Part shown: in pieces, positions 34,125 to 53,706 of the stretch
Position numbering within the stretch: the stretch's first letter is position 1
Layout: each line of letters opens with the position of its first letter
Assembly (NCBI GenBank): GCA_037445065.1
Contig: JBBILD010000006.1
Span: forward strand, 137,187-201,186
DNA: 64,000 nt
Direction: 5' to 3'
Source: Myxococcales bacterium
Lineage (GTDB): Bacteria; Desulfobacterota; Binatia; HRBIN30
Notes under the pieces: model-generated
Told to the model about the DNA's origin: nothing
What the model saw: the letters and a program-made list of their open reading frames with translations, nothing else
The model's database searches: none
Translations under genes and position numbers: made by a program

Positions 34125-34471
34125 GGGGGCGATCTGGTTTCGACGGAGGTGAGAAGGTACGTGGTTGCGTGCCCGGGAGCCTGGGTACCGGTGAACAACC
34201 CCAGGGCTGCATAAACGCAGACGAACCGCTTGCTCTGGCTGCCTAAAGCGCAGTCACGTCTCCCCGACTCGAGCCCGTAGGGTCGGGTGAGGCGTCGCAA
34301 ATCGGGCTAAGCGGTGGTGGCTGCTCGGACACCACCGACGAAAACGTACGAGCTGGCACTTGGATTCCCCGCCCGTGGGGCCGCCAAGTGCGAGAATCAA
34401 ACGCGTGGCTACGCACGTAGAGACCACGGCTGACTGCCTCCGGACGGGGGTTCGATTCCCCCCGCCTCCAC
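34125..34471 (+). ncRNA. ssrA: tmRNA (ssrA)
   Basis: 5' GGGGGCGATCTGGTTTCGACGG. Tag reading frame ...GCAGACGAACCGCTTGCTCTGGCTGCCTAA (..ADEPLALAA*). 3' T-arm/acceptor GGACGGGGGTTCGATTCCCCCCGCCTCCAC. CCA is not encoded. Confidence 0.85.
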
Positions 34472-34480
34472 TTTCTTCAC

Positions 34481-36385: not shown

Positions 36386-39137
36386 ATGCCCGGCCGGGGT
36401 GGTTCGCGCCTTGTGGCCTCCGCACGCTTCGTTCTGCCTGGGAGCGCACTGGCAGCGTTGGCCGCCCTCGGCTTCCGGGGCGACAACGGCGGGGAGCGGC
36501 AGGCGGCGTGGCGAGCGGCGGATTTCGTGGCCTTCAGAACGGTGGAGGCCACGCGCGCTGGGACGGGTGCGAAGTCTCCCGTCCCCGCTCTGTTCGAAGC
36601 AGGCCGTGTACAGGCTGCGCCGCGGCAGGGACCTTCGGCATTGCCGCCGTTGGTGCAGGCGGCGGTGTCCAGAGCAGTAGGTAAGGATCGCGCCCAATTT
36701 CATGCGCGCCAGGAGTTGCAGAGCGACGCGATTCGCTTCGCGCAGCCCGGGCGAGGTCTCGAGGCAGAACTGCGCCCAGAGCACGGGCTGACGGTAAGGA
36801 GCGTGTCTGGCCACCAATGGGGCCTGGAACTGACGCGTTGGGGCTGTGGGAAAGATTTGCGCTCTGCCGGGCCGGTAACCGAGCAGCACCTGCTGGCAAA
36901 CGAAGTCACGTGGGTCCGGAACGGAGGCGGCCTCCGCGAGTGGTATGTGCATGGGCCGTTCGGGATTCAGCAGGGCTTCACGGTCGTGAGCGCGGGTGAG
37001 TCTTGTAGGCGCGAGGCGGCGGATGAGCTGGTACTCGAACTCCAGGTGCGTGGCAGCGTGATCGGCGAACCCGAGCAAGATTGGCGGAGCGTGCTCTGGC
37101 GCGACGCAAGGACGCAAGAGCCCGTCGTCCGCTATTCGGGTCTCATTGCATACGATGCGAACCACCGAGCGCTGCCGGCACGCATGGAGTTGGGGCGGGA
37201 CACGTTGGAGCTGCGGGTGGCGCTGGCGGGGGCGGAGTATCCAGTAGTGGTGGATCCGTTCGTGCAGGAGGCCAAGCTTACCGCAGCAGGCACTGCAGGC
37301 TTGGCCTTGTTCGGAGCGTCAGTGGCAATTGACGGAGACACGATCGTTGTCGGGGCGCCGGGCGTGGACTTTGATGTCGGGGCTGCGTACGTGTTCGAAA
37401 AACCAGCCTCTGGTTGGAACATCACGTCTACCTACTCGGCCAAGCTCACTCCCACGTTCGACGACACGTTTTTGCCTGAAGGGTTCGGTTACGCCGTCGC
37501 CATCTCCGGCAATACGATCGTCGTGGGGGCTCCGTTTTCCACGGTGCACGAGGCGCTCATGATGAAAGAGGCGATCGGCTTGGCGTATGTATACGTGAAA
37601 CCGGATACGGGCTGGGCCGACATGACCGAAACGGCCCGGCTCCGGCCAAGCGATGCCGGCTCGGTCGAGGACTTCTTCGGCTACTCGGTCGCCATCGAAG
37701 GCGACACAATCGTCGTGGGCGCTCCATCTCACACGCCGCCCCCCCGGGGGCGAGGCGTTGCAGTTCAATGGATCCACATACGTCTTCGTGAAGCCCGAAT
37801 CGGGTTGGTCCAACATGACTGAGACTGCCAAGCTCGAAGCAGAAGGAAAGTGGTTGGGTGCCTCGGTGGGCATCAGCGGTGACGTTGTTGTGGTGGGTGC
37901 CCCACTCCATGATCTTGAAGAAAGAGTGAATGCGGGCGCCGCGTACGTGTTTGCACGGCCCGCCGGCGGGTGGACTGGACATGTGCCGCCAGTTGCGAAG
38001 CTTACCGCCTCCGACGGGGAAGCGGGGGATCAACTGGGGCACAGCGCGGCCATCGATGGCGATACCATCGTCGTCGGCACCTTGTTCGACGACGTTGATG
38101 GAAGTGCGGACTAAGGTTCCGTTTATGTGTTTGCCCGCCCGAGCGGTGGCTGGCAGGACACGACGGAAACAGCCAGGCTGACGACCTCGGACGGGGCAGC
38201 CGAAGATTGGTTCGGGCTTGGCTTGGCGATCGAGCACGATACGATCGTTGCGGGAGCGCAGCAACACGACGTTGATAGTGCTTCGAATCAAGGCGCTGCT
38301 TACGTGTTCCTCAGGCCCTCGGGTGGCTGGGCAACGGCGACAGAGGACGGCAAGCCGTTGGCGTCGGATGGGCAAGCTGACGCCAACTTTGGTGTGTCCA
38401 TCGGTTTATCGGGCGGGGTGCTAGTGGCGGGTGCGCTCTTTCACGACCAGAACGGGAACGTAGATCAGGGCTCCGCCTATGTTTTCGCCCGGGAGTTGGA
38501 GCCCCCTTCTCCAACGCCGACCTCGAGTGCGACCCCAACCCCAACCCGGACCCCGACGCCGACCCTGACCCCGACGCTGACCCCGAGCGGCGCTTGCCCA
38601 GCGCTGCCGCGGCTCGACTGCGATCTACCAGCGCGAGCGTCTTTGTGGCTCCGCGACTCTCTCCTCGATCGCGGCGACCGGTTCGCTCTCCGCTTGTTGC
38701 GCAGTGCCCCGAAGCGCAAGCGGGCTGAGTTAGGCGACCCGACCGAAAGCGCGACGTACTCGGTCTGCATGTGGCAAGGTACGGAACCGATGGCACAAAT
38801 GCGAGCGTGGGATCGGAGGAAGTGGACCTCCGGGCCGCGCGGTTATCGGTACATTGATCGCTCGGCATTGAGTGACGGACTCGTCCTGCTCGGTTTGCGG
38901 ACTGGCGGCGATAGGTCGGCCAGAAGGACGCGCGTGATCGCCTTCGGCAGGGGGGTAGCCTTGCCGGAAGTGGCACTTCCCCTGAGCCTGCCGGTGCAGC
39001 TCACGGTTCAAGTGGTGGAGTCAGAGAGTGGCGTCTGCTTTGGCCAAACGTTTACCGATGCTCAGGTGATTGAAAACCGTGAGGATCCCACCGGGCGAAC
39101 ACGGGTGTTTCGAGCCGAACGGCCCAAGGCGCCGTAA
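36386..39137 (+). pseudogene. FG-GAP (integrin-alpha-like) repeat protein, disrupted by a frameshift and a nonsense codon
   Basis: About 9 repeats of the form FGxSVAIxGDTIVVGAP....GAAYVF spread over three tracked ORFs (36386..37822, 37653..38114, 38127..39137). The frame changes inside CCCCCCCGGGGG at about 37735-37750. An in-frame TAA at 38112 sits where sibling repeats have CAA (VDQGSAYVF). C-terminus has a PT linker plus an unknown Cys-containing domain. Confidence 0.65.
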
Positions 39138-39158: not shown

Positions 39159-40250
39159 TTATCGCGCCGCGTACGTTGTAAGCGGCGTCAACATCAAGGC
39201 CAGCGCGGCGCCGACCGGGAACGTGGCGAACCAGGCCAGCAACACCTCCGAGAACGTGCGCACATGGAGCCGCTCTTGAGAACCGCCGGCGCCGGCGATC
39301 GCGGCAACGGCGACGTGGGTCGCCGACACGGGCAGGCTCATAGCGCTGGCGGCAATGACGAGGGCGCTTGTCACTGCGTTGGCTGCAAAGCCGGTACGCG
39401 AATCGAGCGGAGCAATCCGGTAACTCATCGTCGAGGCAACGCGGCCTCCCCAAAACAAGCTGCCAGAGGCCATTGCCAGCCCCACCGCAGCGATGGCGGG
39501 TGCACTGGGTAGCGAGTGGGAGGCGTAAAGGACTCCTAGGACCTTGGGCAGATCGTTGGCGGCACGTGCAAAGCATACGGCCAGTGCGGACAAGAGGTGC
39601 AGGCCGTTCAGATGCTGCGTGATCGAAACCTGCGCAACCGGGTAATGCCGCTCGCAAGTACCGGCGCTAGCGGCCAAGACTAGTGGCGGCACCCACCGTT
39701 GTACGAGCACACCGCGGAATGGCTGGGCTTCGAGCGTGGGTGCCACAACGCAGAGGCAAGCCCGACTGAGATGTGCTCTGCTGAGAAGTTTGCTGAGGAG
39801 AACCCCGAGCCCTGCAGCAAGGAGGGGTGAGAGCAGCATGGGCGCGAGAAAGATACCGCCCAAAACACCAGCATTGAACGATTGGTGGTGTGCGAGCGCG
39901 GTGCCGACCAGGCTGCCCAGCAGGGCGTGGGTCGTGGAAACGGGGAGGCCGAGACAGGTGGCGAGCCCCACCGCGCCAGCACCTGCGAGCACGACGCTCA
40001 GGCGGAAACTGTCCGTGGCGAGCACATCAGCCGGGACCAGTCCGCTGCCCGCGAAACGCTCGGCAAGCTGCTTTCCCAAAGCAATGGCGCTCAGTGCCCC
40101 GGCAAAGGTCGCGAGCGTGGCCAGAGTTTTCGCATGCCGATAGCGAAACACCTGCGCCCCCACCGCGGTTGCGAAGCCTTTGAAGTTATCATTCGCGCCG
40201 TTTGCGAAGCCCAGAAGGAGAACAGCGCTGAAAAGCGACAGGTCCGTCAT
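39159..40250 (-). CDS. inorganic phosphate transporter, PiT family
   Basis: GFANGANDNFKGFATAVGA and a second PHO4 half. Start at ATG 40250 (MTDLSLFSAVLLL). Confidence 0.85.
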   Translation of the reverse strand: MTDLSLFSAVLLLGFANGANDNFKGFATAVGAQVFRYRHAKTLATLATFAGALSAIALGKQLAERFAGSGLVPADVLATDSFRLSVVLAGAGAVGLATCLGLPVSTTHALLGSLVGTALAHHQSFNAGVLGGIFLAPMLLSPLLAAGLGVLLSKLLSRAHLSRACLCVVAPTLEAQPFRGVLVQRWVPPLVLAASAGTCERHYPVAQVSITQHLNGLHLLSALAVCFARAANDLPKVLGVLYASHSLPSAPAIAAVGLAMASGSLFWGGRVASTMSYRIAPLDSRTGFAANAVTSALVIAASAMSLPVSATHVAVAAIAGAGGSQERLHVRTFSEVLLAWFATFPVGAALALMLTPLTTYAAR

Positions 40251-40381
40251 CGTAGCGACGAGGATCGGATTGGGCGTTGGGTGATCAAAGGGAGCCGGGG
40301 CCCTTACGTGCGCCTGCGCTGCCTCGGAGAGCGCTTCTCCAGTGCGGCGGTAGCTCCCTTTGTAGAGGCTGGTCCATCGAA

Positions 40382-41419
40382 TCAGCAACAACCGTTTTTT
40401 GTGTCGTTCACCGGGGCCTCGAACGGGGCGCTTGCGCCGCATCCGGGGAAGATTCCGTAATGGCGTGAAAAGTCGCCGATGAATTCAAAGTGAGGCGCAA
40501 AACGGGTCTGGCGCAGCATCCGCCAGGTGTTCCCGCAAACTGGAAAGACCCGGCCGGCGTCCATTTCGTGACGTTTGTCCAAGCGGAACCGGTGTGGAAA
40601 CCACGGGATGGTTCCACGATAGATCACCGCCTGCCCGTAGTCCTCGCAAGCGTCTTCCAGTCCTTCGAGCCGAAACATGCGATAGGTAGCCGAGTAAAAG
40701 CGCACAGCGCCAACGCGCGCGGCAAGTTTGGGGTCCGTGAGTTCGATCGGGCGATCTTCCACTAAGCGGGGATCGGTGAACCCAGTGCATCGCACCAGAC
40801 GGAGAAAATCGTTCCAGTAGAGTGCCCCTCCTAGGCATTCCGCGTAAAGCACGGGGTCATTTTGGACCTCGAGTGGCACGCGCCGGTCGGCGTAAACATC
40901 GGAAAAGTAGAATTCGCCTCCGAACTTGAGCAAGCGGTACACCCCGGCGAGCACTGCCGCCTTGTCGGCGGAGAGATTCACCACGCAGTTCGAGACGACG
41001 ACGTCGAAGCTCGCTGGTTCCAAATCGAGTTCTTCCAAGCGTTCGATGTACCCGCGCAGAAAACGCACGTTGGAGAACCCAAAGCGCTCGGCGTGCCATC
41101 GCCGGTACCGCTCCGCGACCGCAAGCTGCTCCTCCGTCATATCCACCCCGACGACTTCACCGCTCGGCCCTACGAGTTGCGCGAGCAGGTACACGTCTCT
41201 TCCAGCGCCGCAGCCCAGATCGAGAACGCGGCAGCCGCTGAGCAGTGGCGGGCAGCTGAGGCCGCAACCGTAGTACCGCTTCGCGACCTCCGGGTGAATG
41301 TTGGCGAGAAGTGCTTTTAGCCACGGTGGCGTGGCGACCGGGTCGCAACACGCCGTCGTCTTCAAGTCCGCGGACTGCTGCAGGGTTTTGCCGTAATATT
41401 CCTGAACGAGTTCATGCAT
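40382..41419 (-). CDS. arsM: arsenite S-adenosylmethionine methyltransferase-like
   Basis: N-terminal CCDPV cysteine pair, class I SAM fold VLDLGCGAGRDV, and further conserved Cys. GGGAGG RBS before ATG 41419. Confidence 0.7.
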   Translation of the reverse strand: MHELVQEYYGKTLQQSADLKTTACCDPVATPPWLKALLANIHPEVAKRYYGCGLSCPPLLSGCRVLDLGCGAGRDVYLLAQLVGPSGEVVGVDMTEEQLAVAERYRRWHAERFGFSNVRFLRGYIERLEELDLEPASFDVVVSNCVVNLSADKAAVLAGVYRLLKFGGEFYFSDVYADRRVPLEVQNDPVLYAECLGGALYWNDFLRLVRCTGFTDPRLVEDRPIELTDPKLAARVGAVRFYSATYRMFRLEGLEDACEDYGQAVIYRGTIPWFPHRFRLDKRHEMDAGRVFPVCGNTWRMLRQTRFAPHFEFIGDFSRHYGIFPGCGASAPFEAPVNDTKNGCC

Positions 41420-41846
41420 GCGGGTTCGCCTCCCTGAATGATGTTCTGTGGGATTCGTTGCGCGTTTGGTCGCACCAAGTCCTCGCCTCGTTACAATTGC
41501 CAGACTCGCTCCCATGCCGCGCCTCTCGACTCACCCTGTACGTTGCGAAGCAGCGTGAACCTCTTCTCGGGCCCCCGCATAGGCCCGAGAAGAAGCGCAG
41601 CCCGCAGATCGCGGAAAACCCAGTGTCGGCGCGCACGGGCGCGCTCGTCGGTACAGTTGCCTCCCGCTGTCAAGGGCGCCCGGAGCCACGGCGTTATCGC
41701 GCCTTCGCTGGCACGCCCAAACAGCGCCGACGGGCCAGGCAAGGGAAGCGCATGCAGTTCTGGCTTTGGACAGCCCTCCGAACTGAGTTGCGTGCGCTCC
41801 CGTGCAACGCGGAAACCGTCTCGCTTGTTGCGGACCGCACATTGCG

Positions 41847-42485
41847 TCATGGTGCGAGATGGACACCGCGCGCCAGTGAGGGCGGCAATTCGCTGAGGTG
41901 GGCTGGTTCGTCAATGTCAGTGAGCGCTGGAAACTCCTTCCAAAGCCACCCAATCTCGCGTAGGCGTGCCCTGGTTTGTGCCGCTACAGACGAAGTACTC
42001 CACGCGATGTCGGAAAACAGCCGCGGGTGGAAGTGGCGGGCGCCGAGAAGCACGTAGCCGCCGTCAGTACTAGGAACCAGCACCGCGTCGTGGCGCGTCA
42101 GCGCCTGCCCACAAGCCCTGAGGACGGAGCGTTCTAGGGCAGGACAATCGGTTCCAAGAAGCAGCACCGCATTCCCCAACGCTGCCGATCGTTCCGCAGC
42201 CCGAGCAAGGCGCCGACCTAGATCTCCAGCGCCTTGGTCTGTCCAACGGGTAACGCGAGCAGCGAGTCGCTTACGCCATGCCGTCCACACCGGATTCTCT
42301 GGCTCGGGAGTAACGCAGAGTTCTACTTCGCCGATACCCGAACGGCACGCTTCTCGAACCGTGTAGAGGAGCATGCGGCGGGCGAGAAGCGCGGCGCCTA
42401 CTTCTCCGAGCGCGGGGATGAGCCGCGTTTTTACGAACCCGGGAACGGGTGCCTTTGCGAACACCACAAGGCGCAAGCCCTTCAC
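41847..42485 (-). CDS. DUF2064 / TIGR04282-type rSAM-associated transferase 1 (arsenosugar-cluster glycosyltransferase-like)
   Basis: LRLVVFAKAPVPGFVKTRL...LLLGTDCP. Probable GTG start at 42485 overlapping the upstream stop. The tracked ORF extends to 43067 through low-complexity sequence. Confidence 0.65.
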   Translation of the reverse strand: MKGLRLVVFAKAPVPGFVKTRLIPALGEVGAALLARRMLLYTVREACRSGIGEVELCVTPEPENPVWTAWRKRLAARVTRWTDQGAGDLGRRLARAAERSAALGNAVLLLGTDCPALERSVLRACGQALTRHDAVLVPSTDGGYVLLGARHFHPRLFSDIAWSTSSVAAQTRARLREIGWLWKEFPALTDIDEPAHLSELPPSLARGVHLAP

Positions 42486-43189
42486 GGGTAGGCCCTCGCC
42501 AAATCTTCCGCAGGGACGCCGAGCCAATACAAGCAGCGAAGCCGCCACATGAGAAGGATCGTTCTCCATACCCCGTACGTTTCCCACCGGCGCCCAGAAG
42601 TGGTTACGCGCGAGCCCACGCAAGCCGGGCGGCCGAGCTGCTTCAGCGCACGGGACAGCCAGATGTCTTCCATCAACGGTTGGTCGGGATAGCCCCCGAC
42701 TTTCCAGAAAACGTCGCGGCGGACGAAAATGGCTTGGTCTCCGGTGGCAATCCCACTGAGTCGGGAGCGCAGGTTCATCAGCGCGGCAATCACTGGGAAC
42801 CAGCGGCTTCGACCTTCGATGCGTACGTCGAAGCGGCCCCAAAGGACCTGGGGGCGGGAGAGTGCTCGAGCGATTTGGTAGCACGCGTCGGGAGGCAGCC
42901 GCGTATCCGCATGCAGAAAGACGAGTGCCTCGCCGGTAGCCACGCTCGCACCTGCGTTCATTTGCCTTGCTCTTCCCCGCGGGGCGCACAAGACCCGGAA
43001 ACCAAGGGCACGCGCAAAGGCGACCGATCCGTCTTGACTGCCGCCGTCTACAATCAGCACCTCGCACCCAGCCCGGCGCAGTGGCAGCAAGTGCTGCAAC
43101 AACGAGGGGAGCTGCGTCATTTCGTTGAGCATCGGAACGATGAGGGAGATTTTCATCGTCTGCTTGCTACAGAGTCGTTCAGACTCCAA
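42482..43189 (-). CDS. GT2-family TIGR04283-type rSAM-associated transferase 2
   Basis: MKISLIVPMLNE...EVLIVDGGSQDGS...RGRARQMNAGA...LVFLHADTRLP. Confidence 0.75.
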   Translation of the reverse strand: MESERLCSKQTMKISLIVPMLNEMTQLPSLLQHLLPLRRAGCEVLIVDGGSQDGSVAFARALGFRVLCAPRGRARQMNAGASVATGEALVFLHADTRLPPDACYQIARALSRPQVLWGRFDVRIEGRSRWFPVIAALMNLRSRLSGIATGDQAIFVRRDVFWKVGGYPDQPLMEDIWLSRALKQLGRPACVGSRVTTSGRRWETYGVWRTILLMWRLRCLYWLGVPAEDLARAYP

Positions 43190-44055
43190 TCGTAGTCTCC
43201 GAAGCGGATGGGGATGCGGCCAGCCCGCAACGCCGTTTCTCGTTCAGGGGACAGCTCGAGTTCGCGTGCGTAGAGTGCCAGAAACTCCGCGAGCGAAGTC
43301 GCACCGCGGAAGCCCTGCTCGAAGTCGCCGCGATACCAGTGGAAGATCGGAGACACTTCCAAGTACGTCCCCACCAGCCGATTCCGACCGCGATCTCCGA
43401 GAAATCGGCGCGCTTGATCCTCGAGCTGTGCATCGAGTTCACTTCCTGTGTACGCCTCGGGCCGCAATGCTGGACAGCCGACACTGGCGCAATTGAGGGC
43501 AAAGTGAACCCGTGGGTCTCGGTAGCGCCCTGAGCCGCGAATGAGTCCGTGTTCGATATCGTCCAGAGAGACCGTCTTGCTCAGCAAGCGAATGAACGGA
43601 CGCTTCCAAGGCGATTGGAAGAGGGACCCCAAGTCCTTGATGGACTTGAGCCCCGGGTATCGGCTCAAAACGAGTTGGATGGTGAAGGCATTGTAGGCGT
43701 TGATGAGGAACGCCAGTTGCTGGCTCGCGGGCCAGGTGTCAAAGGCGGCTTGTTGCACCGCCGATAGGTTGGCCAAATAGGCATCCAGCGCTGCTTGATT
43801 TCTCTTGAATCCCGCGTAGTCCACAGTACTCGCGTGCCCTTCGTACACCCAACGCACGTGTTGTTTGAGGAGCGTGTCCCAGGAGCTGTGGTCCGCGAAC
43901 GCGAAAACAGGCCAGGCCGGGAACAGTCCGAGCAAGAGGAAGGAAAAGCAGGCTAGGAGGTTCCGGTGGCAGGTCGCGCCGCGCTGGGGCGTGCTCGCGG
44001 AAGGCCGCGGAGACTCGGCCGCTCTCCCTTTTCCGGTGGCAAACAGGGCTGCCAT
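43153..44055 (-). CDS. DUF547 domain protein, secreted
   Basis: FLINAYNAFTIQLV....HFALNCASVGCPAL (DUF547). Signal peptide LLACFSFLLLGLFPAWPVFAFA. Start at M24 of the tracked ORF. Confidence 0.7.
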   Translation of the reverse strand: MAALFATGKGRAAESPRPSASTPQRGATCHRNLLACFSFLLLGLFPAWPVFAFADHSSWDTLLKQHVRWVYEGHASTVDYAGFKRNQAALDAYLANLSAVQQAAFDTWPASQQLAFLINAYNAFTIQLVLSRYPGLKSIKDLGSLFQSPWKRPFIRLLSKTVSLDDIEHGLIRGSGRYRDPRVHFALNCASVGCPALRPEAYTGSELDAQLEDQARRFLGDRGRNRLVGTYLEVSPIFHWYRGDFEQGFRGATSLAEFLALYARELELSPERETALRAGRIPIRFGDYDWSLNDSVASRR

Positions 44056-44066
44056 CGCTCTCTGGA

Positions 44067-45062
44067 CTAGGGCCATGACGGCCGAGCCTCCGCTCCTGCC
44101 GAGGTTTGCAGGGCGCCACCGCAACTACTGCCCTGGCCCGCAGTGCAGCCGTAGCAATGGTCGGCAACCCGAATCGGCGAACCGGCAGGATCCCACTCGA
44201 GCAAGTCGCGCAAGTGGGCGGGCCGCAGCTGGCGGTTGAGCGGCAAGCGAAGCTGCTGGTTGAAGTCGCAATCGTACAGGTAGCCCTGCCAGTCCACACT
44301 CACGAGGGAACGGCACATGACCTGGTCTGTGTTGCCCGCCCGGAAGTGCTCCTTGAGCAATCGCAGGTAGTTGTGAAACTCGCCGCGCGAAAGCAGCCAC
44401 GAGCCGAAACGCTGAATCGGCATGTTGGTTAGAACGAAGAGGTGGTGGAAAACGATGCCGAAGCGCTCGCGTAGCTCCTGCTTGTACGCCGCTTCGAGGG
44501 ACGTTTGGTTCGGCGGTAGGCTGGGGCCGAGCGGATTGTATACGAGATGAAGCCGCAGGGGGGAGTCCTCTTGGCCGTAGCCAAGGGCGTTCAGCTTCCG
44601 TAATGCCGCAATGCTCTTTTCGAAAACACCCTTGCCGCGCTGGCGATCTACGTTGTCGGCGGAGTAGCAGGGCAGAGATGCGACCACCTCCACTGAGTGG
44701 TCGCGCAGAAACTCAGCCAGGTCTTCCTCGCCTGGCTCGAACAGGACCGTAAGGTTGCAACGGTCGATGACGCGCACCCCGAGACCATGCGCGGCACGCA
44801 CAAGATCCCGGAACCCTGGATGCAATTCCGGAGCCCCGCCGGTAAGGTCGAGGGCGGAGATCCGCCGCGCTGCGAGCACTTTTGGGATCAGCGCCAAGAT
44901 GTCTGCTTGCATCATCTCTGTGCGGTACGGCCCGGCGTTGACATGGCAGTGCATGCACGATTGGTTGCAGCGGTAGCCCAGGTTCACCTGCAGCGTGTTT
45001 ACGGGCCCGCGCTTCAGTGCGGGGAAATCTGTGGGCTCGAGTAGTGGCAAAACGGTCTGCAT
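44067..45062 (-). CDS. arsS: arsenosugar-biosynthesis-type radical SAM protein with C-terminal Cys-rich domain (ArsS-like)
   Basis: CNQSCMHCHVNAG radical-SAM cluster. C-terminal ...ADHCYGCTAGQGSSCGG (Cys-rich selenodomain-type tail). Confidence 0.8.
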   Translation of the reverse strand: MQTVLPLLEPTDFPALKRGPVNTLQVNLGYRCNQSCMHCHVNAGPYRTEMMQADILALIPKVLAARRISALDLTGGAPELHPGFRDLVRAAHGLGVRVIDRCNLTVLFEPGEEDLAEFLRDHSVEVVASLPCYSADNVDRQRGKGVFEKSIAALRKLNALGYGQEDSPLRLHLVYNPLGPSLPPNQTSLEAAYKQELRERFGIVFHHLFVLTNMPIQRFGSWLLSRGEFHNYLRLLKEHFRAGNTDQVMCRSLVSVDWQGYLYDCDFNQQLRLPLNRQLRPAHLRDLLEWDPAGSPIRVADHCYGCTAGQGSSCGGALQTSAGAEARPSWP

Positions 45063-45314
45063 CTTTTTTCCTCTCGAAACAAAGAACGGAATGTTTCATC
45101 CCTTGAGATCGTTGACGGGTGCGGCGTTGCTATGGTCGTTCCCCTCCATCGCTCTCTTACGGTCGAGGTGGCGGGCAGGATGAGATTCGCGCCCGTAAGA
45201 AACGGAGAGCCTGGCCCGACGAACGGGGCCAGAGCTGCTGCGACCTACGCCTGCGTTCGGACAACTGCACAGGGGGATCGCGCGAGCGTTCGATTCGAAA
45301 GGAGGAGAATGACC

Positions 45315-45896
45315 ATGGAAAGAAAGTCCGCTCTCCTGGATCTTGTCCCGTATTCAGCCGAATCGGCACCGGAGAAAGCTAAGGAGCTAATGGAAAGGAT
45401 TCGCGCCAAGTATGGATTCGTTCCGAACGTGTATGCGGGGATGGCTCATTCCCCTGGCCTCCTCGAGACGTACCTAGTCGGGTACGAGCAGTTCCGGGAG
45501 AAGAGTGGGTTGAACCCAATTGAGCAAGAGGTCGTTTTCCTCACCATCAGCCGCTTCCACCGATGCCACTATTGCATGGCCGCGCACAGTCTGGTGGCCG
45601 ATTTGGTGGCGAAAATGCCGACTGACGTCCTGGATGCTGTTCGCAAAGGCAGGAGCATTCCTGACCCCAAGCTCGCCGTGCTAGCCTCTTTCACCCACGC
45701 CATGGTGGAAACCCGGGGAATGCCAACGCCCGAGCAGGTGCAGGAATTTCGCGCTGCAGGGTACACCGACCGGCACGCGCTCGAAATCATTCTGGCGTTG
45801 GCCCTCAAGACCATGAGCAACTTCTCGAATCACCTGCTGCAACCGGAGCTGGAGCCGGCTTTCCGAGCCTATGCGTGGGCGGAAGACCCTAGCTGA
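45315..45896 (+). CDS. carboxymuconolactone decarboxylase / AhpD-like peroxidase family
   Basis: CxxH motif RCHYCMAAH. AGGAGGAG RBS; the second ATG, at 45315, is preferred for RBS spacing. Confidence 0.75.
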   Translation: MERKSALLDLVPYSAESAPEKAKELMERIRAKYGFVPNVYAGMAHSPGLLETYLVGYEQFREKSGLNPIEQEVVFLTISRFHRCHYCMAAHSLVADLVAKMPTDVLDAVRKGRSIPDPKLAVLASFTHAMVETRGMPTPEQVQEFRAAGYTDRHALEIILALALKTMSNFSNHLLQPELEPAFRAYAWAEDPS

Positions 45897-46117
45897 GTCT
45901 TATAAGGGTCCCGATTTGGCCCGGCGCATTGACGAGCGCTGGCTTGTTCGGCCACAGGGCCTGCGGCGCTGATTTCTAGGCTGCGGCACGGCTTTTCTCG
46001 GCCCGCAGGCTGGGCCATCACTACTGAGTGCACTGCCAGCAGTGCTCGCAACTGGAGCCGGGCGCAAGTCGCGCTCGGCCTGGAGAATCAGGAGTCACGA
46101 CCCGGAGCGTCCCGGCT

Positions 46118-46318
46118 TCATTTCGCGCCAGGCATGTTCGGGCGATCCGTGCTGACGTATCGGCGGATCGCTTGTCGTAGTAAGAGGAACTGCTTGCGGG
46201 CATTGCGGCAACCGGAACACATCATTGCATGGAACATTAGAGCGACCCTTTCCCGCCAACTCAGCGAACGCTCCTGCGCCTCGCTCATCAAGCGAGTGGC
46301 TTCACGGCAGCTCAACAT
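46118..46318 (-). CDS. zf-HC2 anti-sigma factor
   Basis: MLSCREATRLMSE...HAMMCSGCRN (H-x3-C-x2-C). Start overlaps the stop of the ECF sigma gene. Confidence 0.6.
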   Translation of the reverse strand: MLSCREATRLMSEAQERSLSWRERVALMFHAMMCSGCRNARKQFLLLRQAIRRYVSTDRPNMPGAK

Positions 46319-46974
46319 GGTTTGCCTCCCGAGAACCAGCGGTTCTCGAGGCACTCCCGCAAGCGCAGGCGCGCCCGGTGCAACATGACGTTCAAGTTCG
46401 TTGCCGTAATCCCTAGGCTGGTACAGATCTCGTGGCTTTCGAGTCCTAAAAACTCCCGCATCATGAAGACCCGTGCCTGGCGCGCGGGCAGATGCTCTAA
46501 GCACGCTTCGAAGACTTGCCAGAACTGTGCGTTTTGAAACGCATCTTCTGGGTCTTGCCAGGTACGAGGGCGTTCTTGAGCGAGCCAAAAGCCCTGCTGA
46601 TCGAACCACTCCCCTTCTTCCTCCTCGTCCTCCCGCAGCAATTGGCTGGCCTCAACCAGTCGCTGGCGCCGGCGCAGCTCGTCCGCGACTTTGTTTTTGA
46701 GGATTGCAAACACCCACGTCTTGAATGCCGAGCGGCCGGCAAAGGTGCTCGCGTTTTTCATTGCACCAGCGAGTGCCTCCTGAACGGCGTCCTCGGCTGC
46801 CTGGGGATCGGACAGTTGCAGGGTGGCGAACTTAAGCATTTGCCGGCGCAACTCACCGAGAAACCCCTCGTCGAGCGCCGCCACACTGGTTGCGCGAGCA
46901 CTGCCTAGCGAAGGTGGCGTCCGCGTCTCATTCATTGGTTGTCCGTCGTTCTGTTCGGCCAGAGTGTCTTTCAC
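46312..46974 (-). CDS. RNA polymerase sigma-70 factor, ECF subfamily
   Basis: Region 2 and region 4 (HEICTSLGITATNLNVMLHRAR) of ECF sigma factors are present. Confidence 0.85.
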   Translation of the reverse strand: MKDTLAEQNDGQPMNETRTPPSLGSARATSVAALDEGFLGELRRQMLKFATLQLSDPQAAEDAVQEALAGAMKNASTFAGRSAFKTWVFAILKNKVADELRRRQRLVEASQLLREDEEEEGEWFDQQGFWLAQERPRTWQDPEDAFQNAQFWQVFEACLEHLPARQARVFMMREFLGLESHEICTSLGITATNLNVMLHRARLRLRECLENRWFSGGKPC

Positions 46975-48132
46975 GCACGGGGGCAGGGAAAAGCTGGAAG
47001 TAAACTACCGAAGGAGAAACGAGCAATAAAGCTCCTGTCCAGCGTTTCCTTCCACTTCCAGGCCAAGCGGCCTTCAAAATGCAAAGGACCCCACGCCGCG
47101 ACGGCATAGCCAGGCCCGCAGCTCAGCAGAGATAGGGTCCATGCGCGCGGCTGGACCATTCGCAACGGTTCACCGCATAAAGCCGCCCGGAGGTTGTGGG
47201 CAAGGAACGACCCCGTGCGTGCAGCGTGGATGTCCGCGCCCGGCAACCTACCACCGGCGGGCGTGCACGTCTCTCCAACGCAGAAGACGTTGGGATGCGA
47301 GACGCTGCGGTGCGAACTGTCCACGAGTACGAACCCCGCCGGGTCGAGGTCCAACCCCGATTGCCGCAGCCAGTGCGGAGGGCGCACATTCGTGGCTGCA
47401 AGAACAGTATCTGCCGCCAAGTGCCTACCGCTGCCGAGGAACACGCCGGCGGAACTGCCCACCGCGTCCTCTCGGATCCACTTGATTCCAGCCGTGCGCA
47501 ACAACCGTTGGATACGGCGGCGCACGCCCTCCGGGTAGCCAGACAACAATCCTGCCTCACCGCTAATGAGCACAGTCTCGACCCCGAACGGTCCCAGTTT
47601 CTTCTGTGCGGCGAAGGCGAGTTCGACTGCATGACGTCCCTCGCCGATCACTACGATGCGAGAAAGCGTGCCTCGCTGTGCTCTGGTGACAAGCTGCTGC
47701 CAACCCGCGCAAAAGTCGGTTGAAGGACGGAGTGCTAGCAGGCGGTTTCCGCAGGCAGCGAGGCTCGAGACATCCGTTTCCCCTTCGAGTTCGAGCGAGA
47801 CCACCCCGTAGGCAAGTGTGGCGCCGCTCACGAACCGGGCTCGAGACTGCCGTGCGTCAATCGCTGCGATTCGGTCTTCGATGAAGCGGATCCTTGCCCG
47901 AGCGCATAGGGCCCGCAAATCGATCCGCCATTCTTCTTCCCGATAGTACCCGCCCATCCACTCAGGCAGCATCCCAACGGGAAACGAATACCGCGTGGGA
48001 GCCACGAGTATCACTTCCCCTGCATCGAGCGGCGTGCGGGCGAGCTGCTCGAGGACGAAGAGGTGGGCCTGCCCCCCCACCGGCCAGGAGTAGCCGTCGC
48101 CTGCCATTGTGGGTGGATTGCAGCGCCTCCAT
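46971..48132 (-). pseudogene. FAD-dependent pyridine nucleotide-disulfide oxidoreductase (NDH-2/SQR-like) with a frameshift in a C7/G7 tract
   Basis: Body VVIGEGRHAVELAFA...VFCVGETC is in the frame of ORF 46971..48107. The N-terminal Rossmann MEALQ..RRRLLLAGGG lies in another frame (ORF 47962..48636). The two frames meet at CCCCCCC, 48061-48068. Confidence 0.55.
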
Positions 48133-48323
48133 GGCTGACCGGCCCGCTCGCGGGCCGGCGCGCATTCCCGTACCTGGACAGTATGCCACAGGGTGATGCC
48201 CGTGGAATCTCATCTTGTCCGCGTTGGTCGGACTGGGCGCACGTTTCTTACCTGACGGGCAGCGTCGGTGGCATTTCCGCTGGACACGGATGTCTCCCGA
48301 GAAGGGCGATTCATGCCAGATCT

Positions 48324-49682
48324 TCAGAGGACCAGTTTGTACGCGAGACCGAACGCGCCGCTCAGCGCAATAACTGGGATCACGCCGGCTTGCTGGCGAA
48401 AGAGCAAGTAGGTGGCGCCAAGGGCAATGCATGCTGAGGGCCAGTCGAAACGGCCGCTGAATCCATGTGGCCAAAGCACGTGGTAAGTCAGGAACAATGC
48501 CAAATACACGATCACCCCGGTTACCGCCGCAGTAACTGCCTGTAGCGGCGCCGTGAGCGTCAGATTGCCGCGCGTGGATTCGACCATAGGGCCACCCGCG
48601 AGAATGAACAGAAAAGAGGGCAGAAAGGTAAACCACGTGGCCACTAGGGCGGCGAGTGCCCCTCCTGCAAAGGTGTACTCCGGGCCGAGGAGTGCCTGCC
48701 GGTAGCCGGCTACGAAGGCGACGAAGGCCACCACCATGATCAGTGGACCTGGAGTCGTTTCGCCGAGCGCTAAGCCGTCAATCATCTCTCCAGGAGTAAG
48801 CCAGCCGTAATGGTTCACAGCGGCTTGGTACACATAGGGAAGCACCGCGTACGCGCCCCCGAAGGTGAGCAAGGCGACCTTGGTAAAGAACCAAGTCATC
48901 TGCGTGAACATGCCACGCCAGCCGTCCGTTGCGGCCAGCCACGCCATTGGCACCACCCAAAGCAACGCACCGGCCACCAGCACTCGGGCAAAGCTGCGCG
49001 CGCGAAAGCGGGTGTGTTCTGGTGGGGGCGTGTCCTCGTCGATCAGCGCGGGAGTAAATTGCGAGACGGCCCCATTTGTTTTTCCCAGCAATCGCTCAGG
49101 AGCCAAGCGCCAGGCCAAGTAGCCGACCACCGCCGCGCCGGTCAAAATCGCCGGGAACGGCACCTGGAGGGCGGAGATGGCCACGAAGGAGGCGGCCGAA
49201 ATTGCCCAAAGCAAATGGCTGCGAAGCGTACGCGTGCCAATGCGGTAAGCGGCGTGCGCGACGATCGCGGTGACCGCCGGTTTGAACCCGTAAAAGAGCC
49301 CGGCCACAGCGGGCTGGTTGCCGAACGCAACATAGAGCCACGCTAGTAGGGTCAGGAGGATCAGCGACGGCAGGACGAACAGGGCTCCAGCAGCAATTCC
49401 GCCCCACGTGCGATGCAGTAACCAGCCAATGTAGGTGGCAAGCTGCTGGGCTTCCGGCCCGGGAAGCAGCATGCAGTAGTTCAGAGCGTGCAGAAAGCGA
49501 GGTTCGCTGATCCAACGCCTCCGCTCGACGAGTTCGGCGTGCATGATCGCGATTTGGCCGGCTGGACCACCAAAGCTCACGAAACCAAGTTGGAGCCAGA
49601 ACCGAAGCGCCTCCCGAAAGCTCACAGTCGCTGGTCGCGAGGTTGGTCCCTGGGAAGGGGGTTCCGTCGTCTGCGCTGTCAC
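48324..49682 (-). CDS. chrA: chromate ion transporter (CHR family)
   Basis: Duplicated ChrA halves with FGGPAGQIAIMH and LLTFGGAYAVLPY motifs. Confidence 0.85.
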   Translation of the reverse strand: MTAQTTEPPSQGPTSRPATVSFREALRFWLQLGFVSFGGPAGQIAIMHAELVERRRWISEPRFLHALNYCMLLPGPEAQQLATYIGWLLHRTWGGIAAGALFVLPSLILLTLLAWLYVAFGNQPAVAGLFYGFKPAVTAIVAHAAYRIGTRTLRSHLLWAISAASFVAISALQVPFPAILTGAAVVGYLAWRLAPERLLGKTNGAVSQFTPALIDEDTPPPEHTRFRARSFARVLVAGALLWVVPMAWLAATDGWRGMFTQMTWFFTKVALLTFGGAYAVLPYVYQAAVNHYGWLTPGEMIDGLALGETTPGPLIMVVAFVAFVAGYRQALLGPEYTFAGGALAALVATWFTFLPSFLFILAGGPMVESTRGNLTLTAPLQAVTAAVTGVIVYLALFLTYHVLWPHGFSGRFDWPSACIALGATYLLFRQQAGVIPVIALSGAFGLAYKLVL

Positions 49683-51136
49683 ACTAGGGCCCTTGCTCGA
49701 GGATCACCGTAGCTGTGCGCGCAGGTGCTTCCACTGCAGACAGGAACCGTTCCTGTTCCGAGGCAATCTTCCATCGTCGCTTGCAACTCCTGGTGCATTG
49801 CAGGTGAGCTGGGTGCGTCAGTTGCTGCGAAGGGACTCGGGGCTTCTGTTGTGGCCCTGGACAGTCGCCGTGCGGGCCAGCCTCCGCTGCCAGAAACTCG
49901 CTGCGGCTCCTGAGGCCACGAGTAAGAGCGGCCTTTTCTCCTCCGTTAGCCTATGTCGAGGGAGCGGTTCCCTGTTTGCCGGACCTCGTGCACGTCTCCC
50001 GTCAGCGCCTGGATCGGATGCAAACAGCTCTGCTCGTCGGAAGAGAACGCCCCACCGGGGCACGCCGATCACGTTCTTGTTCGGACCGCTCCGGCGTGTA
50101 GGCCCTGTTCGAGGGCCTACGGGACTGGTGCGGGAGCCGGTAGAGCCTCCACGTCTCCCCGCTCTTGTGCTCCTCCCAGTTGCGAAGCTGCGGACATTGT
50201 GCTGCCGACTTGCTCGGCCACTCCTGCAAGTCTGGAAGCGCCTCTTGCCCAGCCCGTCTGTCGGCGAGCCAGAGCCGCCCGCTCACGTAGACAGCGTTCG
50301 TTTTGCGCGGCAGGTCGTCCACGGCTTTGCACAAACGAGTGCATGCTCCAACGCTGCCTGCGTGCCGCGGGCAGCACCTGAGAGGCAGTCGCGCCGAATT
50401 CGGGTGGCGGTCGCCCCTCCGCAGCTCTACCCCGCGAAGCTCCCGATCCTTGCGGCGCAACCACACAGCCTGCCAGCTTGGCTCGCAGTGGCGGCGCACC
50501 CACCTTCGCCGCGACTGGCGGTTCCGTCGGCACACGTGCAAGCAGAAGAGCTGCCCTTACAACAATTGGCAGCCCCGGTAATTCAACGGAATCCGAACAC
50601 CCACAGCACGGGGCCACGTGCCGCTGCTTGCACAGCGGGCGCGGGTACGAGATGCCATCCAGGTTGTGTAGGGGCGACCCTTGTGGTTACCGGAGGTGCC
50701 GTTGGCAGTGCTGTTCGAACGTGCCCGCGGCGTTTATGCGACCACGCGTTGCTGGCAGCATGGTGTCCCTTCGCCGCACTCCCCTGCCCCCCGAGGCATG
50801 CTGTCACCACTACCACCAACAACGCTGAAATCGTTGCGCATGGCTCCCCGGGATTGGACCGCAGCGCCTACCCAGGAGCGCTTTCGGCGTGAGCGGCCGA
50901 GCGCACTCCTGGCGAGTGGGCAATGAGCTGGCCGATCGCCGGCGTTTGGGGACGCCGCTGGTGCGAGCACTTCGGTGCGGCCCAGGCTCGACCTCCGCGG
51001 CTTTGGTTCCGAAACTTCGTTGCTTGAGTTGCGTGCTAAGGGGTGTAGCGTGCCGAGTCAGGCGAGGAGGGTTGCGCATGCACCCAGCCGCCGCACGGCA
51101 AAGGTGGCCTAGTAGTCGCGGGGGGCGTACTCGCGC

Positions 51137-53030
51137 ATGCGCGTGGTTCCTCGCGGTCGTGTTCTTTTGGGCGAGCCCGGAGGCTCCATGGCTTTGGCAC
51201 TCGCTGCCTGCCCGCTCGACTGCAATGAAGACGGGCTCGTATCGGAGAGCGGGTTAGCCCTTGGACTCGCCAACGTCTCTCCCCGAGCAGTGTTTGGCTG
51301 TCCCATCGCTGGCCCGCAGTCGACTCCAACGCCGACGGCGACTACGGCGTCGAGGACCTCATCCGCGGCGCCACGGCTCGCCGTCTGCAGTGCGAAGATG
51401 TGGCATCACCGGCAGGCTGGCGCGGTGCGGTCATTGACGCATTGCAGGGACTCTATCTCATCGGTGCCCAACTCCGCGCCAACCGCTGACCTCCACCGGG
51501 CACGTTGGCGTCCGACCCCTCATGGGCGTGGCTTGGGCCGGATTCTGCCACGCCGAGCCCACGCCTCAGTTCCGGTTCGTCACCACAACCTCCAATCTGC
51601 CCTGGATGCGGCCTGGCTGGCCACCGCCGAATTGTGCCTTCGACCCGCCGGCGGCGGCTTATCTCGCGGACGTGCCGCCCACCCCTACCCTCACGCGCAC
51701 GCCTACCAGCAGCACACCTACCCCGGGCACGCGCACCCCCACTTGGATTGCCACGCCCACTCGGACGGCCACGGCCACTCCCACCGGTCCCACGCCCATA
51801 CGTACACCGGTTCTCTTATGCGACACTGTGGATTGCCGCGGGATCGCTCCGGACTGCTGCCCGTGCCCTGGAGATTCCTGTCCCATTGCCGATTGGCAGG
51901 TGGAACCAATACCGCAAGTGCAAGGAGTATTTCTGCGCGCTCGATCCGTTGAGCCCGGCGTGCTTGGGCGAGTGTGGGACTTGTCCACCGAATGCTCCGT
52001 GTCTCGGCGCTCCAGCGACTGCTTGTGCGACAGCCACCTACACGCGTACGCCGGCGTGCAGCCCACGCGCACCGCCAGTCCCACTCGCACGCCCACCGGA
52101 CCGACCCGTACTCCCACCGCGGCGCCACCCCCGGCGCGCATCCCCGGACTCGCTGTGCCGATCCTCGACGTATCCGGGAGCAACGGCGAGCGTGTGACCG
52201 TCGAGGCGTACTTAGTGGGCAGCGGCGGCAAGGTTGGCGGTTTGGAATTCGACTTGCTGCTGCTGCAGGCGGCTGTAGCGCCAGTGGCTGTGTCGGAACA
52301 ATCGGCGGACAGCGTCCTGCAAGCAGCCTTTCTCTCCACCCACCGCTTGCCTCTAGTCGCGCCCCCGATCACCCGCTCGCTGGATTCGACCGGGTGCCGG
52401 TGCTGGTGGCGGACCGCAACGTGACCGACCGACTGCGCGACGAAACGCAGATGTTGAGCGACGGTGTGGTGGTGACCTGCACTCTGACCATCCTCACCAA
52501 CGCGCCTAGGGGCGGCCACCCGTTGCGCGTGGATCGGGCGCGAGCAGGCGATGAGCGCGGCACTTCCCTGTGGCCCTTCCGGGGCAGGCGACGCTGTGGG
52601 TGGGGGGCTGTTCGGGGAGCTGCTGCTCAAAGGAGGCGCCACCATGAGGCCGATGTTGTTCGGCACATACAGAACAACCGAACCCGCACCGCCTGCCTGG
52701 CTTGCAGCGCTGCTCGCGGCAGCCGTTGTTCAGGCTCGTGGGGCCTGGGGCCAGTTCGTACTCGAGGAAAGGTGGGACTTCCGGTACCCAGGCCCAGGCT
52801 ATGTCATCGAGCGCACGGCCTGGTATGCGGTCTACCCGGTCAAAACCAGAGATGCCATTGGTCCGCCTGGAGGCAGTGCGATGATTTCCGTTGCAGTGCG
52901 CCCGACATTGCGCTGTTGCGACTCAGAGCCGCAAGCGTTCTGGGAGGGGTGGTTTTCTCTCCGCTTCGCGGGTCTCGAGGGCTTGGGTTCCCCGTTGCAG
53001 CGCAGCTTTATCCGGCGCGGCCTGCGGTGA
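51137..53030 (+). pseudogene. multiply frameshifted locus encoding dockerin-like, PT-linker, Cys-rich and cohesin-like segments (scaffoldin-like remnant)
   Basis: Frame 2 reads CPLDCNEDGLVSESGLALGLANV (dockerin-like). Frame 0 reads PTPTLTRTPTSSTPTPGTRTPT... and later PTRTASPTRTPTGPTRTPT...VPILDVSGSNGERVTVEAYLVGSGGKVGGLEFDL (cohesin-like). Another frame reads CALDPLSPACLGECGTCPPNAPC. No single frame is open across the region. Confidence 0.3.
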
Positions 53031-53226
53031 GCCGTGCTGCCCGATTCTTTGCAAGTCGTCCCGGACCGAGGGTCTGGATGGCGTCTTCTCCCTCCCCGTT
53101 GGGGTGGGTTTCGGTTCATTCCGGCCAAGGTTCCGGATATCCAGGTCCGGGAATGGCTCAGGGGGCTGAGAGCCCCTGGTCGCCCTGAGTCAGCGCCATG
53201 CGAGAGGATCGTGGTTTGGTTTTACG

Positions 53227-53706
53227 TTGGGCTTCAACTGTTGCTTGAAGGCGAGTCGGGCCCATTCGCAACGGACCCGATTCCGATTCACGAGTGGCCC
53301 GAGGGGGCCCTCGGGCCTGCCGTTTTTCGCGCCTGAGGATTCGGCGGTGTGCTGTGGCTTCTTTGTGCCTGCTACTGCCCGCCCAGGGACGTACCCGGCA
53401 GAGTGCGCGGGCAACGAAGAAGGGATCCTGCTGCCGCCGGAGTGTGGCGGCTGCCAACGGGGCGCTTTGCACGTGGTGCCGTGCGTGGCCGACTGCAACC
53501 GCGACGGGCAGGTGACCGTGGAGGAACTGGTGCGCGCGGTGGGCGTGGTGGTGGGCAGGGAGCGTTACGAAGGCTGCGCTGCTGCCGATGGCAACGAAGA
53601 CGGGGCGGTCGCCTTGGATGAGGTGGTGCGTGGCGTGCGCAACGTGCTGACGAGCTGCCTGCAGACCTGGATGGAAGCGCACAACGCCCCTCTAGAGGTG
53701 CCGTGA
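53227..53706 (+). CDS. Cys-rich protein fragment with C-terminal dockerin-like double repeat
   Basis: CVADCNRDGQVTVEELVRAVGVVVG...ADGNEDGAVALDEVVRGVRNVL. No signal peptide at the tracked TTG start, so this may be the 3' part of the decayed upstream gene. Confidence 0.4.
   Translation: MGFNCCLKASRAHSQRTRFRFTSGPRGPSGLPFFAPEDSAVCCGFFVPATARPGTYPAECAGNEEGILLPPECGGCQRGALHVVPCVADCNRDGQVTVEELVRAVGVVVGRERYEGCAAADGNEDGAVALDEVVRGVRNVLTSCLQTWMEAHNAPLEVP

Follow-up and report, generated by a model that had tools for sequence, protein, structure and literature searches.

A probable ArsS/ArsM organoarsenical biosynthesis cluster with a likely ECF sigma regulator in a Binatia contig

A 64,000-nucleotide stretch of contig JBBILD010000006.1 (positions 137,187 to 201,186; assembly GCA_037445065.1, Myxococcales bacterium, placed in Binatia by GTDB), here called the window, carries a compact arsenic cluster built around arsS, encoding an enzyme of the radical S-adenosylmethionine (SAM) type, and arsM, encoding an As(III) methyltransferase. 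The locus is probably an ArsS/ArsM organoarsenical biosynthesis regulon of a proteobacterial type, and dimethylarsenic-ribose compounds of the "arsenosugar" type are what, by its gene content, it most likely makes from arsenic. An earlier note, made from this DNA alone, described six genes on one strand and a divergent AhpD-like gene; all seven are confirmed where that note placed them. With its recurring partners the cluster spans about 9 kb (39159-48165) and not 6.7 kb, because the earlier span left out co-conserved genes at 46118-48165 for a TIGR03169 flavoprotein, a sigma factor of the extracytoplasmic function (ECF) class and a ZAS anti-sigma factor. The sigma/anti-sigma pair is the likely regulator, predicted from sequence and standing where ArsR would be expected.

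The cluster is laid out as three transcription units plus the divergent ahpD-like gene (Table 1). The TIGR03169 flavoprotein, sigma and anti-sigma genes form the first unit. The second comprises arsS, the DUF547 gene, a family 2 glycosyltransferase gene (GT2, TIGR04283) and a DUF2064 gene (TIGR04282), with stop and start codons overlapping by 4-10 nt, and the third, after a gap of 427 nt, comprises arsM and the gene for a PiT-family permease. Start sites were refined against a second genome, L081 (GCA_964574465.1; 94.9% DNA identity, reached through its DUF547 homologue), whose gene layout is identical. The earlier note saw no arsR, arsB or acr3, and the ArsR, ArsB, Acr3 and ArsC families indeed have no match among about 75 window open reading frames (ORFs), namely all 52 composition-selected ORFs of at least 90 residues plus alternative ORFs in the cluster and at 49.7-56.5 kb, with uncalled small ORFs not included. 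Rfam returned no RNA family in the 38-50 kb interval at E up to 1, and a sigma-70 promoter scan found no promoter.

Table 1. Features of the arsenic cluster and of a possible remote member, in window coordinates
Feature	Position	Strand	Basis or remark
PiT-family permease	39159-40250	-	PF01384; ORF extendable to 40442
arsM, As(III) SAM methyltransferase, long algal/CmArsM-like type	40382-41419	-	structural homology and Cys motifs
ECF-type promoter-like motif GTAACG-N16-CGAC	41469-41494	-	50 nt before arsM ATG
DUF2064, CofC/MobA-like nucleotidyltransferase fold	41847-42485	-	TIGR04282
GT2 glycosyltransferase	42482-43156	-	TIGR04283
DUF547 protein	43153-44076	-	PF04784
arsS, radical SAM enzyme	44067-45062	-	TIGR04167 equivalog
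ECF-type promoter-like motif GTAAGA-N16-CGAC	45135-45160	-	upstream of arsS
ECF-type promoter-like motif	45195-45220	+	upstream of ahpD-like gene; exact pattern match
AhpD/CMD-family gene	45315-45896	+	CxxCxxxH motif, structure match; divergent from arsS
ZAS anti-sigma factor, 66 aa, zinc-binding	46118-46318	-	NF052368
ECF sigma factor	46312-46935	-	TIGR02943
TIGR03169 ("N-terminal to SelD") pyridine nucleotide-disulfide oxidoreductase	46971-48165	-	TIGR03169; frameshifted
VTT/DedA-type membrane protein	56501-57391	+	PF09335, 81 bits
NF004991 FAD disulfide oxidoreductase	57378-59012	+	NF004991, 705 bits (cut-off 620)

Assignment of the core genes rests on profile and structure matches. ArsS passes the TIGR04167 equivalog threshold (456 bits; cut-off 300) and also matches PF12345/DUF3641 (184.5 bits) and PF04055 (43.8 bits). 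Its CX3CX2C radical SAM motif is formed by C32, C36 and C39 within CNQSCMHC. The Cys-rich tail noticed earlier is borne out by C303, C306 and C314, three cysteines in the last 30 residues. The C-terminus, GSSC314, places a cysteine where some members have selenocysteine, and a GxxU motif is listed for TIGR04167 (PMC13188914). In a scan limited to one genome per species, ArsS had 570 relatives or more; gene neighborhoods were examined for the top 80, which are 65-74% identical to the window protein and belong for the most part to Beta- and Gammaproteobacteria. According to a review that cites in vitro work, characterised ArsS adenosylates trivalent dimethylarsenic, DMAs(III), to 5'-deoxy-5'-dimethylarsinoyl-adenosine (DDMAA).

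The arsM product matches the Chlamydomonas ArsM structure 5evj over residues 33-362 of a 377-residue ORF (E=2.9e-103) and two arsenic methyltransferase structures, 4fr0 (E=2.7e-90) and 4kw7 (E about 3e-90). Its sequence retains TACC25 (C24/C25), GC52G, SNC145V and EC195LGGA as cysteine motifs, together with the SAM motif VLDLGCGAG. By motif context, C24/C25, C52, C145 and C195 presumably correspond to C44, C72, C174 and C224 of CmArsM. The protein is about 70% identical to the ArsMs found in 21 of 51 arsS loci, the 51 being those with at least 5 kb upstream and at least 8 kb downstream of arsS, on which all partner percentages below are based.

The three other genes of the arsS unit belong to families that the earlier note had named, and hidden Markov model searches uphold these assignments, as they do that of ArsS, with every curated threshold passed. 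The glycosyltransferase, a 224-residue domain, scores 280 bits on TIGR04283 (cut-off 182) and 70 bits on PF00535; both its score and its position next to the TIGR04282 gene, with arsS in the same gene run, place it in the family. DUF2064 scores 190.6 bits on TIGR04282 (cut-off 134) and 110 bits on PF09837, and its relatives include the CofC family TIGR03552 (48 bits) and PDB 3cgx (E=2.9e-14). The DUF547 protein scores 97.9 bits on PF04784 (gathering score 27). Its invariant cysteine pair, NCASxGCP, suggests a periplasmic thiol-redox or arsenical-binding helper, and a hydrophobic N-terminal segment (residues 38-59) is consistent with export or anchoring and so with the secretion that had been proposed. 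The database name "arsenosugar biosynthesis" for TIGR04282 and TIGR04283 rests on gene context. The earlier remark that the accessory genes have no biochemical role assigned to them is in line with the literature that could be searched, in which no functional work turned up on bacterial DUF547 or DUF2064, nor on arsenosugars combined with glycosyltransferase, DUF2064, the TIGR numbers or methylthioadenosine (MTA) phosphorylase, nor on ECF combined with arsM.

The PiT permease (PF01384, 185 bits, gathering score 33.7; PDB 6l85, E=5e-19) falls under the cut-offs of the phosphate and sulfate permease equivalogs (PitA, 34.5 against 800; CysP, 64.4 against 400). Its gene lies directly downstream of arsM in all eight loci that carry PiT, and likewise on an Acinetobacter plasmid, which suggests that the permease is coupled to arsM, with arsenate, methylarsenate or phosphate as candidate substrates. 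Entry of arsenate through PiT, as suggested in the earlier note, is plausible. The AhpD-like protein matches a solved AhpD (6e8l, E=6.6e-30) and carries the CxxCxxxH active-site motif as C84-H-Y-C87-MAAH. Scored on an over-long ORF, it stays just under the curated cut-offs (TIGR01926, 68.5 against 81.8; PF02627, 21.7 against 23). It is 40.6% identical to a CMD-family protein encoded beside the Acinetobacter cluster, and NCBIfam includes an ArsM/AhpD fusion family, NF041537. The protein may serve the pathway as a thiol-disulfide reductant.

Judged by its recurrence, the grouping of the arsenic genes is not chance, because GT2 occurs in 84% (43/51) and DUF2064 in 80% of the full-flank loci (both together in 41), and PiT follows ArsM wherever it is present. 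The commonest partner is a VTT/DedA protein fused to a MerA-like FAD oxidoreductase (86%). The TIGR03169 flavoprotein accompanies arsS in 49% (25/51), MTA phosphorylase in 43%, the ECF sigma factor in 20% (10/51), DUF547 and PiT in 16% each and the AhpD-like gene in 6%. MTA phosphorylase homologues occur in 31 of the 80 loci; in 17 they lie 18-96 nt upstream of arsS and co-oriented with it, and on a Burkholderia thailandensis plasmid (L083) the annotated gene directly adjoins those of TIGR04283 and TIGR04282.

The proposed regulator consists of two well-supported families. The sigma factor has sigma regions 2 and 4 and scores 247 bits on TIGR02943 (cut-off 162) and 298 bits on NF009196 (cut-off 287); the anti-sigma factor scores 65.7 bits on NF052368 (cut-off 50) and also matches PF13490. 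C4, H30, C34 and C37 of the anti-sigma factor, the last three forming HxxxCxxC, are invariant in all 15 aligned sequences (the window and 14 loci). No hydrophobic segment is visible by eye in its 66 residues, no transmembrane prediction having been run.

A promoter-like motif, GTAA(G/C)A-N16-17-CGAC, came to light when the sequences preceding arsS were read in the loci with a sigma gene. Its strict form occurs at 39 sites in 1.38 Mb of related loci, and 24 of these precede arsS (10), arsM (6), TIGR03169 (6) or the sigma gene (2) in the same orientation and by no more than 250 nt. The site upstream of arsS lies 56-93 nt from the gene in 10 proteobacterial loci. In the window the exact motif occurs three times (0.21 expected), two copies standing back to back between arsS and ahpD. 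The third exact match, at 9827-9852 (-), lies inside a beta-lactamase-family ORF (8804-10105) and was treated as chance. A weight matrix trained solely on proteobacterial loci, applied to about 128,000 window positions, gave its three best scores upstream of ahpD (17.0), arsM (16.0) and arsS (13.6). All three of these sites are conserved in L081; the arsM site has the same position relative to arsM in five other loci (L006, L007, L009, L014, L033), and several loci have a divergent second copy of the motif that points at an MTA phosphorylase gene. Because the motif is shared by arsS, arsM and ahpD, it links the ahpD-like gene with the pathway and singles out a likely regulator. The linkage of PiT and of an AhpD/CMD-family gene to the arsenic genes, noted earlier, recurs in independent genomes.

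The closest known counterparts are proteobacterial. On the Acinetobacter portensis plasmid pJNE5-X3_NDM-1 (NZ_CP096121) and on plasmids of Burkholderia thailandensis and B. glumae, genes for arsS, DUF547, TIGR04283, TIGR04282, an ArsM-type methyltransferase and PiT follow one another in the order of the window, and an ECF sigma gene and a CMD/AhpD-family gene lie nearby, as they do here. Identities to the window proteins are 61-67% for ArsS, 66% for the methyltransferase, 43% for PiT and 53% for the sigma factor. The order on NZ_CP096121 is arsS, a TVP38/FAD oxidoreductase, DUF547, TIGR04283, TIGR04282, the methyltransferase and an inorganic phosphate transporter, plus mtnP. In the window, by contrast, no TVP38/VTT-FAD oxidoreductase fusion separates arsS from DUF547, a split pair of such genes being found 11 kb off, and the mtnP and CcdA/thioredoxin genes of the plasmid clusters are missing; a divergent ahpD-like gene, preceded by an ECF-type motif of its own, stands between arsS and the anti-sigma gene, and the TIGR03169 gene is frameshifted. 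Because the gene order recurs in dozens of Beta- and Gammaproteobacteria and RefSeq already uses "arsenosugar biosynthesis" names, this kind of cluster is already known. On NZ_CP096121 (L087), a mobilizable plasmid named for NDM-1, the cluster is complete from arsS through PiT and includes mtnP (137070-145361), and ArsS was found on 49 Burkholderia plasmids.

Cyanobacterial ArsS belongs to the same equivalog family, the Synechococcus protein scoring 455.9 bits. The arsM-arsS system of Synechocystis is reportedly the experimentally studied cyanobacterial example. On the Pseudanabaena galeata plasmid pPg_02, the order is TVP38, "mercuric reductase", AsSugarArsM, TVP38 and arsS, so that arsS has an As(III) methyltransferase partner as in the window. 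The ArsM lineage differs, however, the Pseudanabaena protein being 28% identical to the window ArsM, and the cyanobacterial loci examined lack PiT. An ArsR/SmtB gene lies about 6 kb from the Pseudanabaena cluster, where the 9 kb around arsS have neither a sigma nor an anti-sigma gene in the annotation. The comparison of gene order with cyanobacterial arsS/arsM loci that the earlier note called for thus gave no match, with VTT and MerA-like genes, another ArsM lineage and no GT2 or DUF2064 at the cyanobacterial loci examined.

Two further systems share parts of the design. The arsinothricin genes arsQML of Burkholderia gladioli likewise combine a radical SAM enzyme that forms a C-As bond, an ArsM-type methyltransferase and an adjoining permease. 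Their ArsL transfers a 3-amino-3-carboxypropyl group and not 5'-deoxyadenosyl, whereas the radical SAM protein of the window is ArsS, and arsinothricin ArsM models score the window ArsM well below cut-off (142 against 500, 64 against 240). Like RsrA/ChrR-type pairs, the regulatory pair joins an ECF sigma factor to a short soluble anti-sigma factor with an invariant zinc site of Cys plus HxxxCxxC, and a -35/-10-like motif precedes its targets. It differs in that the sigma factor belongs to TIGR02943 and the targets are organoarsenical biosynthesis genes.

A biosynthetic route can be proposed from these parts. ArsM, going by its family, would methylate As(III) twice to DMAs(III), the intermediate that ArsM homologues supply. 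ArsS would then move the 5'-deoxyadenosyl group of SAM onto DMAs(III) to give DDMAA, the activity established for its family. DDMAA is an analogue of MTA in which dimethylarsinoyl replaces methylthio, and the gene context in relatives suggests that an MTA phosphorylase paralogue might cleave it to adenine and an alpha-ribose-1-phosphate derivative; because the window has no such gene, its organism would need one encoded elsewhere. DUF2064, proposed to activate either arsenoribose-1-phosphate or the aglycone, might convert the ribose-1-phosphate derivative to a nucleoside diphosphate sugar, as its context and fold suggest. GT2 enzymes invert (CAZy), and the TIGR04283 protein, the proposed arsenoribosyl transferase, would on similar grounds pass arsenoribose to an acceptor and yield the beta-riboside typical of arsenosugars. 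The product of MTA phosphorylase is an alpha-1-phosphate, and natural arsenosugars are beta-ribofuranosides.

Thiol reducing power might come from the AhpD-like protein, the TIGR03169 flavoprotein, the DUF547 cysteine pair and possibly a distant VTT and MerA-like pair, and PiT would move an arsenic or phosphate oxyanion. The ECF sigma factor would drive expression once freed, which would happen when some thiol-reactive signal, perhaps a trivalent arsenical, reacts with the Cys/His zinc site of the anti-sigma factor. To our knowledge, and in the searchable literature, only the ArsM and ArsS steps have been shown experimentally, and the route from DDMAA to the riboside has no assigned enzymes. 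Confidence is accordingly uneven across the parts: the regulon identity is held with good confidence and supports the earlier interpretation as organoarsenical biosynthesis, the specific route through MTA phosphorylase, DUF2064 and GT2 is tentative, and the whole explanation, a blend of the two, is moderately probable. The wider proposal is doubtful that heterotrophic Proteobacteria hold a dedicated ECF/ZAS regulon that senses trivalent arsenicals at the zinc-thiolate site of the anti-sigma factor and contains the later arsenosugar enzymes (the MTA phosphorylase paralogue, DUF2064 and GT2), with a specialised PiT feeding or draining arsenic oxyanions.

Several observations weigh against the proposed regulon and route. 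The window ArsM scores below every NCBIfam cut-off (best NF008823, 174 against 263; NF040538, 142 against 500; NF038099, AsSugarArsM, 80.6 against 400), an outcome that the earlier note had formally listed as evidence against its ArsM call; structure matches and cysteine motifs uphold the call, and the profile scores do not. Because arsS-adjacent ArsMs in two other genomes, Zhongshania and Rhizobium (L060 and L064), fail the same models, the shortfall is read as a gap in model coverage, and the protein is judged to be an ArsM of a lineage without a curated model and not a non-ArsM. Its Acinetobacter orthologue is named by PGAP merely as a "methyltransferase domain-containing protein". ArsM is moreover encoded in cis in a minority of arsS loci (41%, 21 of 51). 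No MTA phosphorylase occurs in the 64-kb window, and the VTT-FAD oxidoreductase, the most faithful partner of ArsS elsewhere, is not in cis, so the window does not show the fuller proteobacterial form that has both. No solved fold matches the DUF547 model.

The regulatory evidence has gaps of its own. Of 79 loci, just 10 have the strict motif ahead of arsS, and the weight-matrix scan of the window found no promoter motif upstream of the TIGR03169-sigma unit. The TIGR03169 gene carries a +1 frameshift in a G7 run (48072-48078); its Rossmann motif, GxGxxH, near the N-terminus is no longer in frame, and the truncated ORF scores 245 bits against a cut-off of 310. L081, relative to which the window has a single G too many, reads GGGGGA at this point and encodes an intact orthologue of 411 residues; the frameshift is either a homopolymer assembly error or the mark of a recent pseudogene.

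The two transferases leave room for a different product. The 12-kb Synechococcus contig and the Pseudanabaena plasmid have neither TIGR04283 nor TIGR04282 near arsS. Because these arsS loci have no GT2 or DUF2064 nearby, and cyanobacteria are the bacteria reported to make arsenosugars, the transferases may not be needed for classical arsenosugars; they may make a different derivative, or they may be encoded elsewhere in cyanobacteria. ArsM and ArsS could thus lead to DDMAA as proposed while GT2 and DUF2064 serve another end, building the aglycone or the acceptor, or else a sugar linked to polyprenyl phosphate, flipped by a DedA/VTT protein and used in the periplasm by DUF547. The best solved relatives of the GT2 are ArnC, an undecaprenyl-phosphate sugar transferase (E=1.4e-6), and dolichol-phosphate mannose synthase, the VTT/DedA domain is the most conserved partner of ArsS, DUF547 has an export-type N-terminus, and the compound activated by CofC, to which DUF2064 is closest among characterised proteins, is a small phospho-acid and not a sugar. 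The similarity to ArnC is, however, at the generic GT2 level, and ArnC-type enzymes are membrane-anchored, while the window GT2 is a 224-residue domain for which no transmembrane prediction was run. The placement of MTA phosphorylase, on the B. thailandensis plasmid and beside arsS in 17 loci, also fits a sugar-1-phosphate route, and this alternative is considered unlikely.

Two other explanations depart further from arsenosugar synthesis. The many thiol-redox partners (TIGR03169, fused elsewhere to a SelD-related protein, the MerA/RclA-like and AhpD-like proteins, and CcdA, thioredoxin and peroxiredoxin-like proteins in relatives) might mark a thiol or oxidative-stress regulon, or one for another metalloid (Se, Te, Sb), in which arsenic is not what ArsS and ArsM naturally act on; their substrate would be some other soft element, or their product a metabolite with redox activity. 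Sensing of thiol oxidation is known for anti-sigma factors of the ZAS type, the ArsS family includes selenoproteins, and no ars resistance genes were found in the scanned window ORFs. Such a regulon is nevertheless improbable: the window ArsS scores as high on its equivalog as the cyanobacterial member (456 and 455.9 bits), the demonstrated substrate of its family is DMAs(III), ArsM has retained the cysteine motifs that bind As(III) and aligns closely with crystallised ArsMs, and the Pseudanabaena arsM-arsS genes lie near an ArsR/SmtB gene. Simple detoxification by methylation, with PiT, AhpD, DUF547 and the transferases as unrelated neighbors, is very improbable. ArsM alone gives resistance in many organisms, and AhpD-like, DUF547 and PiT genes each occur in a minority of arsS loci; but the overlapping stop and start codons from arsS to DUF2064, the same order in unrelated genomes and plasmids, the constant position of PiT after ArsM and the common motif before arsS, arsM and ahpD all speak against it, and synteny had already disfavored it.

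Arsenosugars and arsenolipids dominate the arsenic in seafood. Among bacteria, according to a 2025 review, oxo-arsenosugars have been reported from cyanobacteria. If the wider proposal for heterotrophic Proteobacteria is right, arsenosugar-type compounds would be made well beyond algae and cyanobacteria. The cluster type is widespread, named in databases and biochemically unfinished, and the window adds nothing new in kind. Its value, when it is taken with the related loci, lies in a compact, testable set of candidate genes for the missing steps (the MTA phosphorylase paralogue, DUF2064 and GT2), a candidate regulator with a defined promoter motif and an ArsM-coupled transporter, found in culturable bacteria. 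The same cluster is carried on plasmids, including an NDM-1 plasmid.

A VTT/DedA-type gene and an adjoining FAD oxidoreductase gene at 56.5-59.0 kb were considered as the counterpart of the fusion found within proteobacterial clusters. They are 39-41% identical to the fused protein between arsS and DUF547, and the oxidoreductase and VTT protein are 47% and 36% identical, respectively, to the "mercuric reductase" and TVP38 of the Pseudanabaena arsM-arsS cluster. At this low identity orthology was not accepted, and the pair is kept as a possible remote member; its membership is uncertain because no ECF motif lies nearby. ChrA (48324-49682, -; TIGR00937, 231 bits) is co-directional with, and directly upstream of, the TIGR03169-sigma unit; it was rejected as a member because this adjacency is limited to the window, L081 and one of 51 other arsS loci.

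A few neighboring features touch on the proposed pathway. The window encodes MtnA (methylthioribose-1-phosphate isomerase, 468 bits; 22685-23725, -) and a glutathione synthetase (18962-20140, -). The former is relevant because the window has no MTA phosphorylase, and mtnA implies a methionine salvage that produces methylthioribose-1-phosphate. A sterol desaturase/fatty acid hydroxylase gene lies next to arsS clusters in Thiodictyon and Acinetobacter (L084, 8054-8959; L087, 18399-19058) and occurs in 5 of 80 loci, and may hint at a lipid-linked product.

The remaining surroundings of the cluster are mixed. Beside PiT, an FG-GAP repeat gene (36386-39137, +) is split across frames into at least three ORFs (36386-37822, 37653-38114 and 38127-39137); it shows six gap positions relative to L081, and further indel errors or decay are possible. 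Beyond ChrA, the region 49700-56500 (about 6.8 kb, 66% GC) has few ORFs of clear coding composition, and the 13 ORFs tested there have no Pfam match. A tmRNA gene lies at 34125-34473 (+; Rfam, 165.8 bits) and encodes the tag peptide ADEPLALAA.

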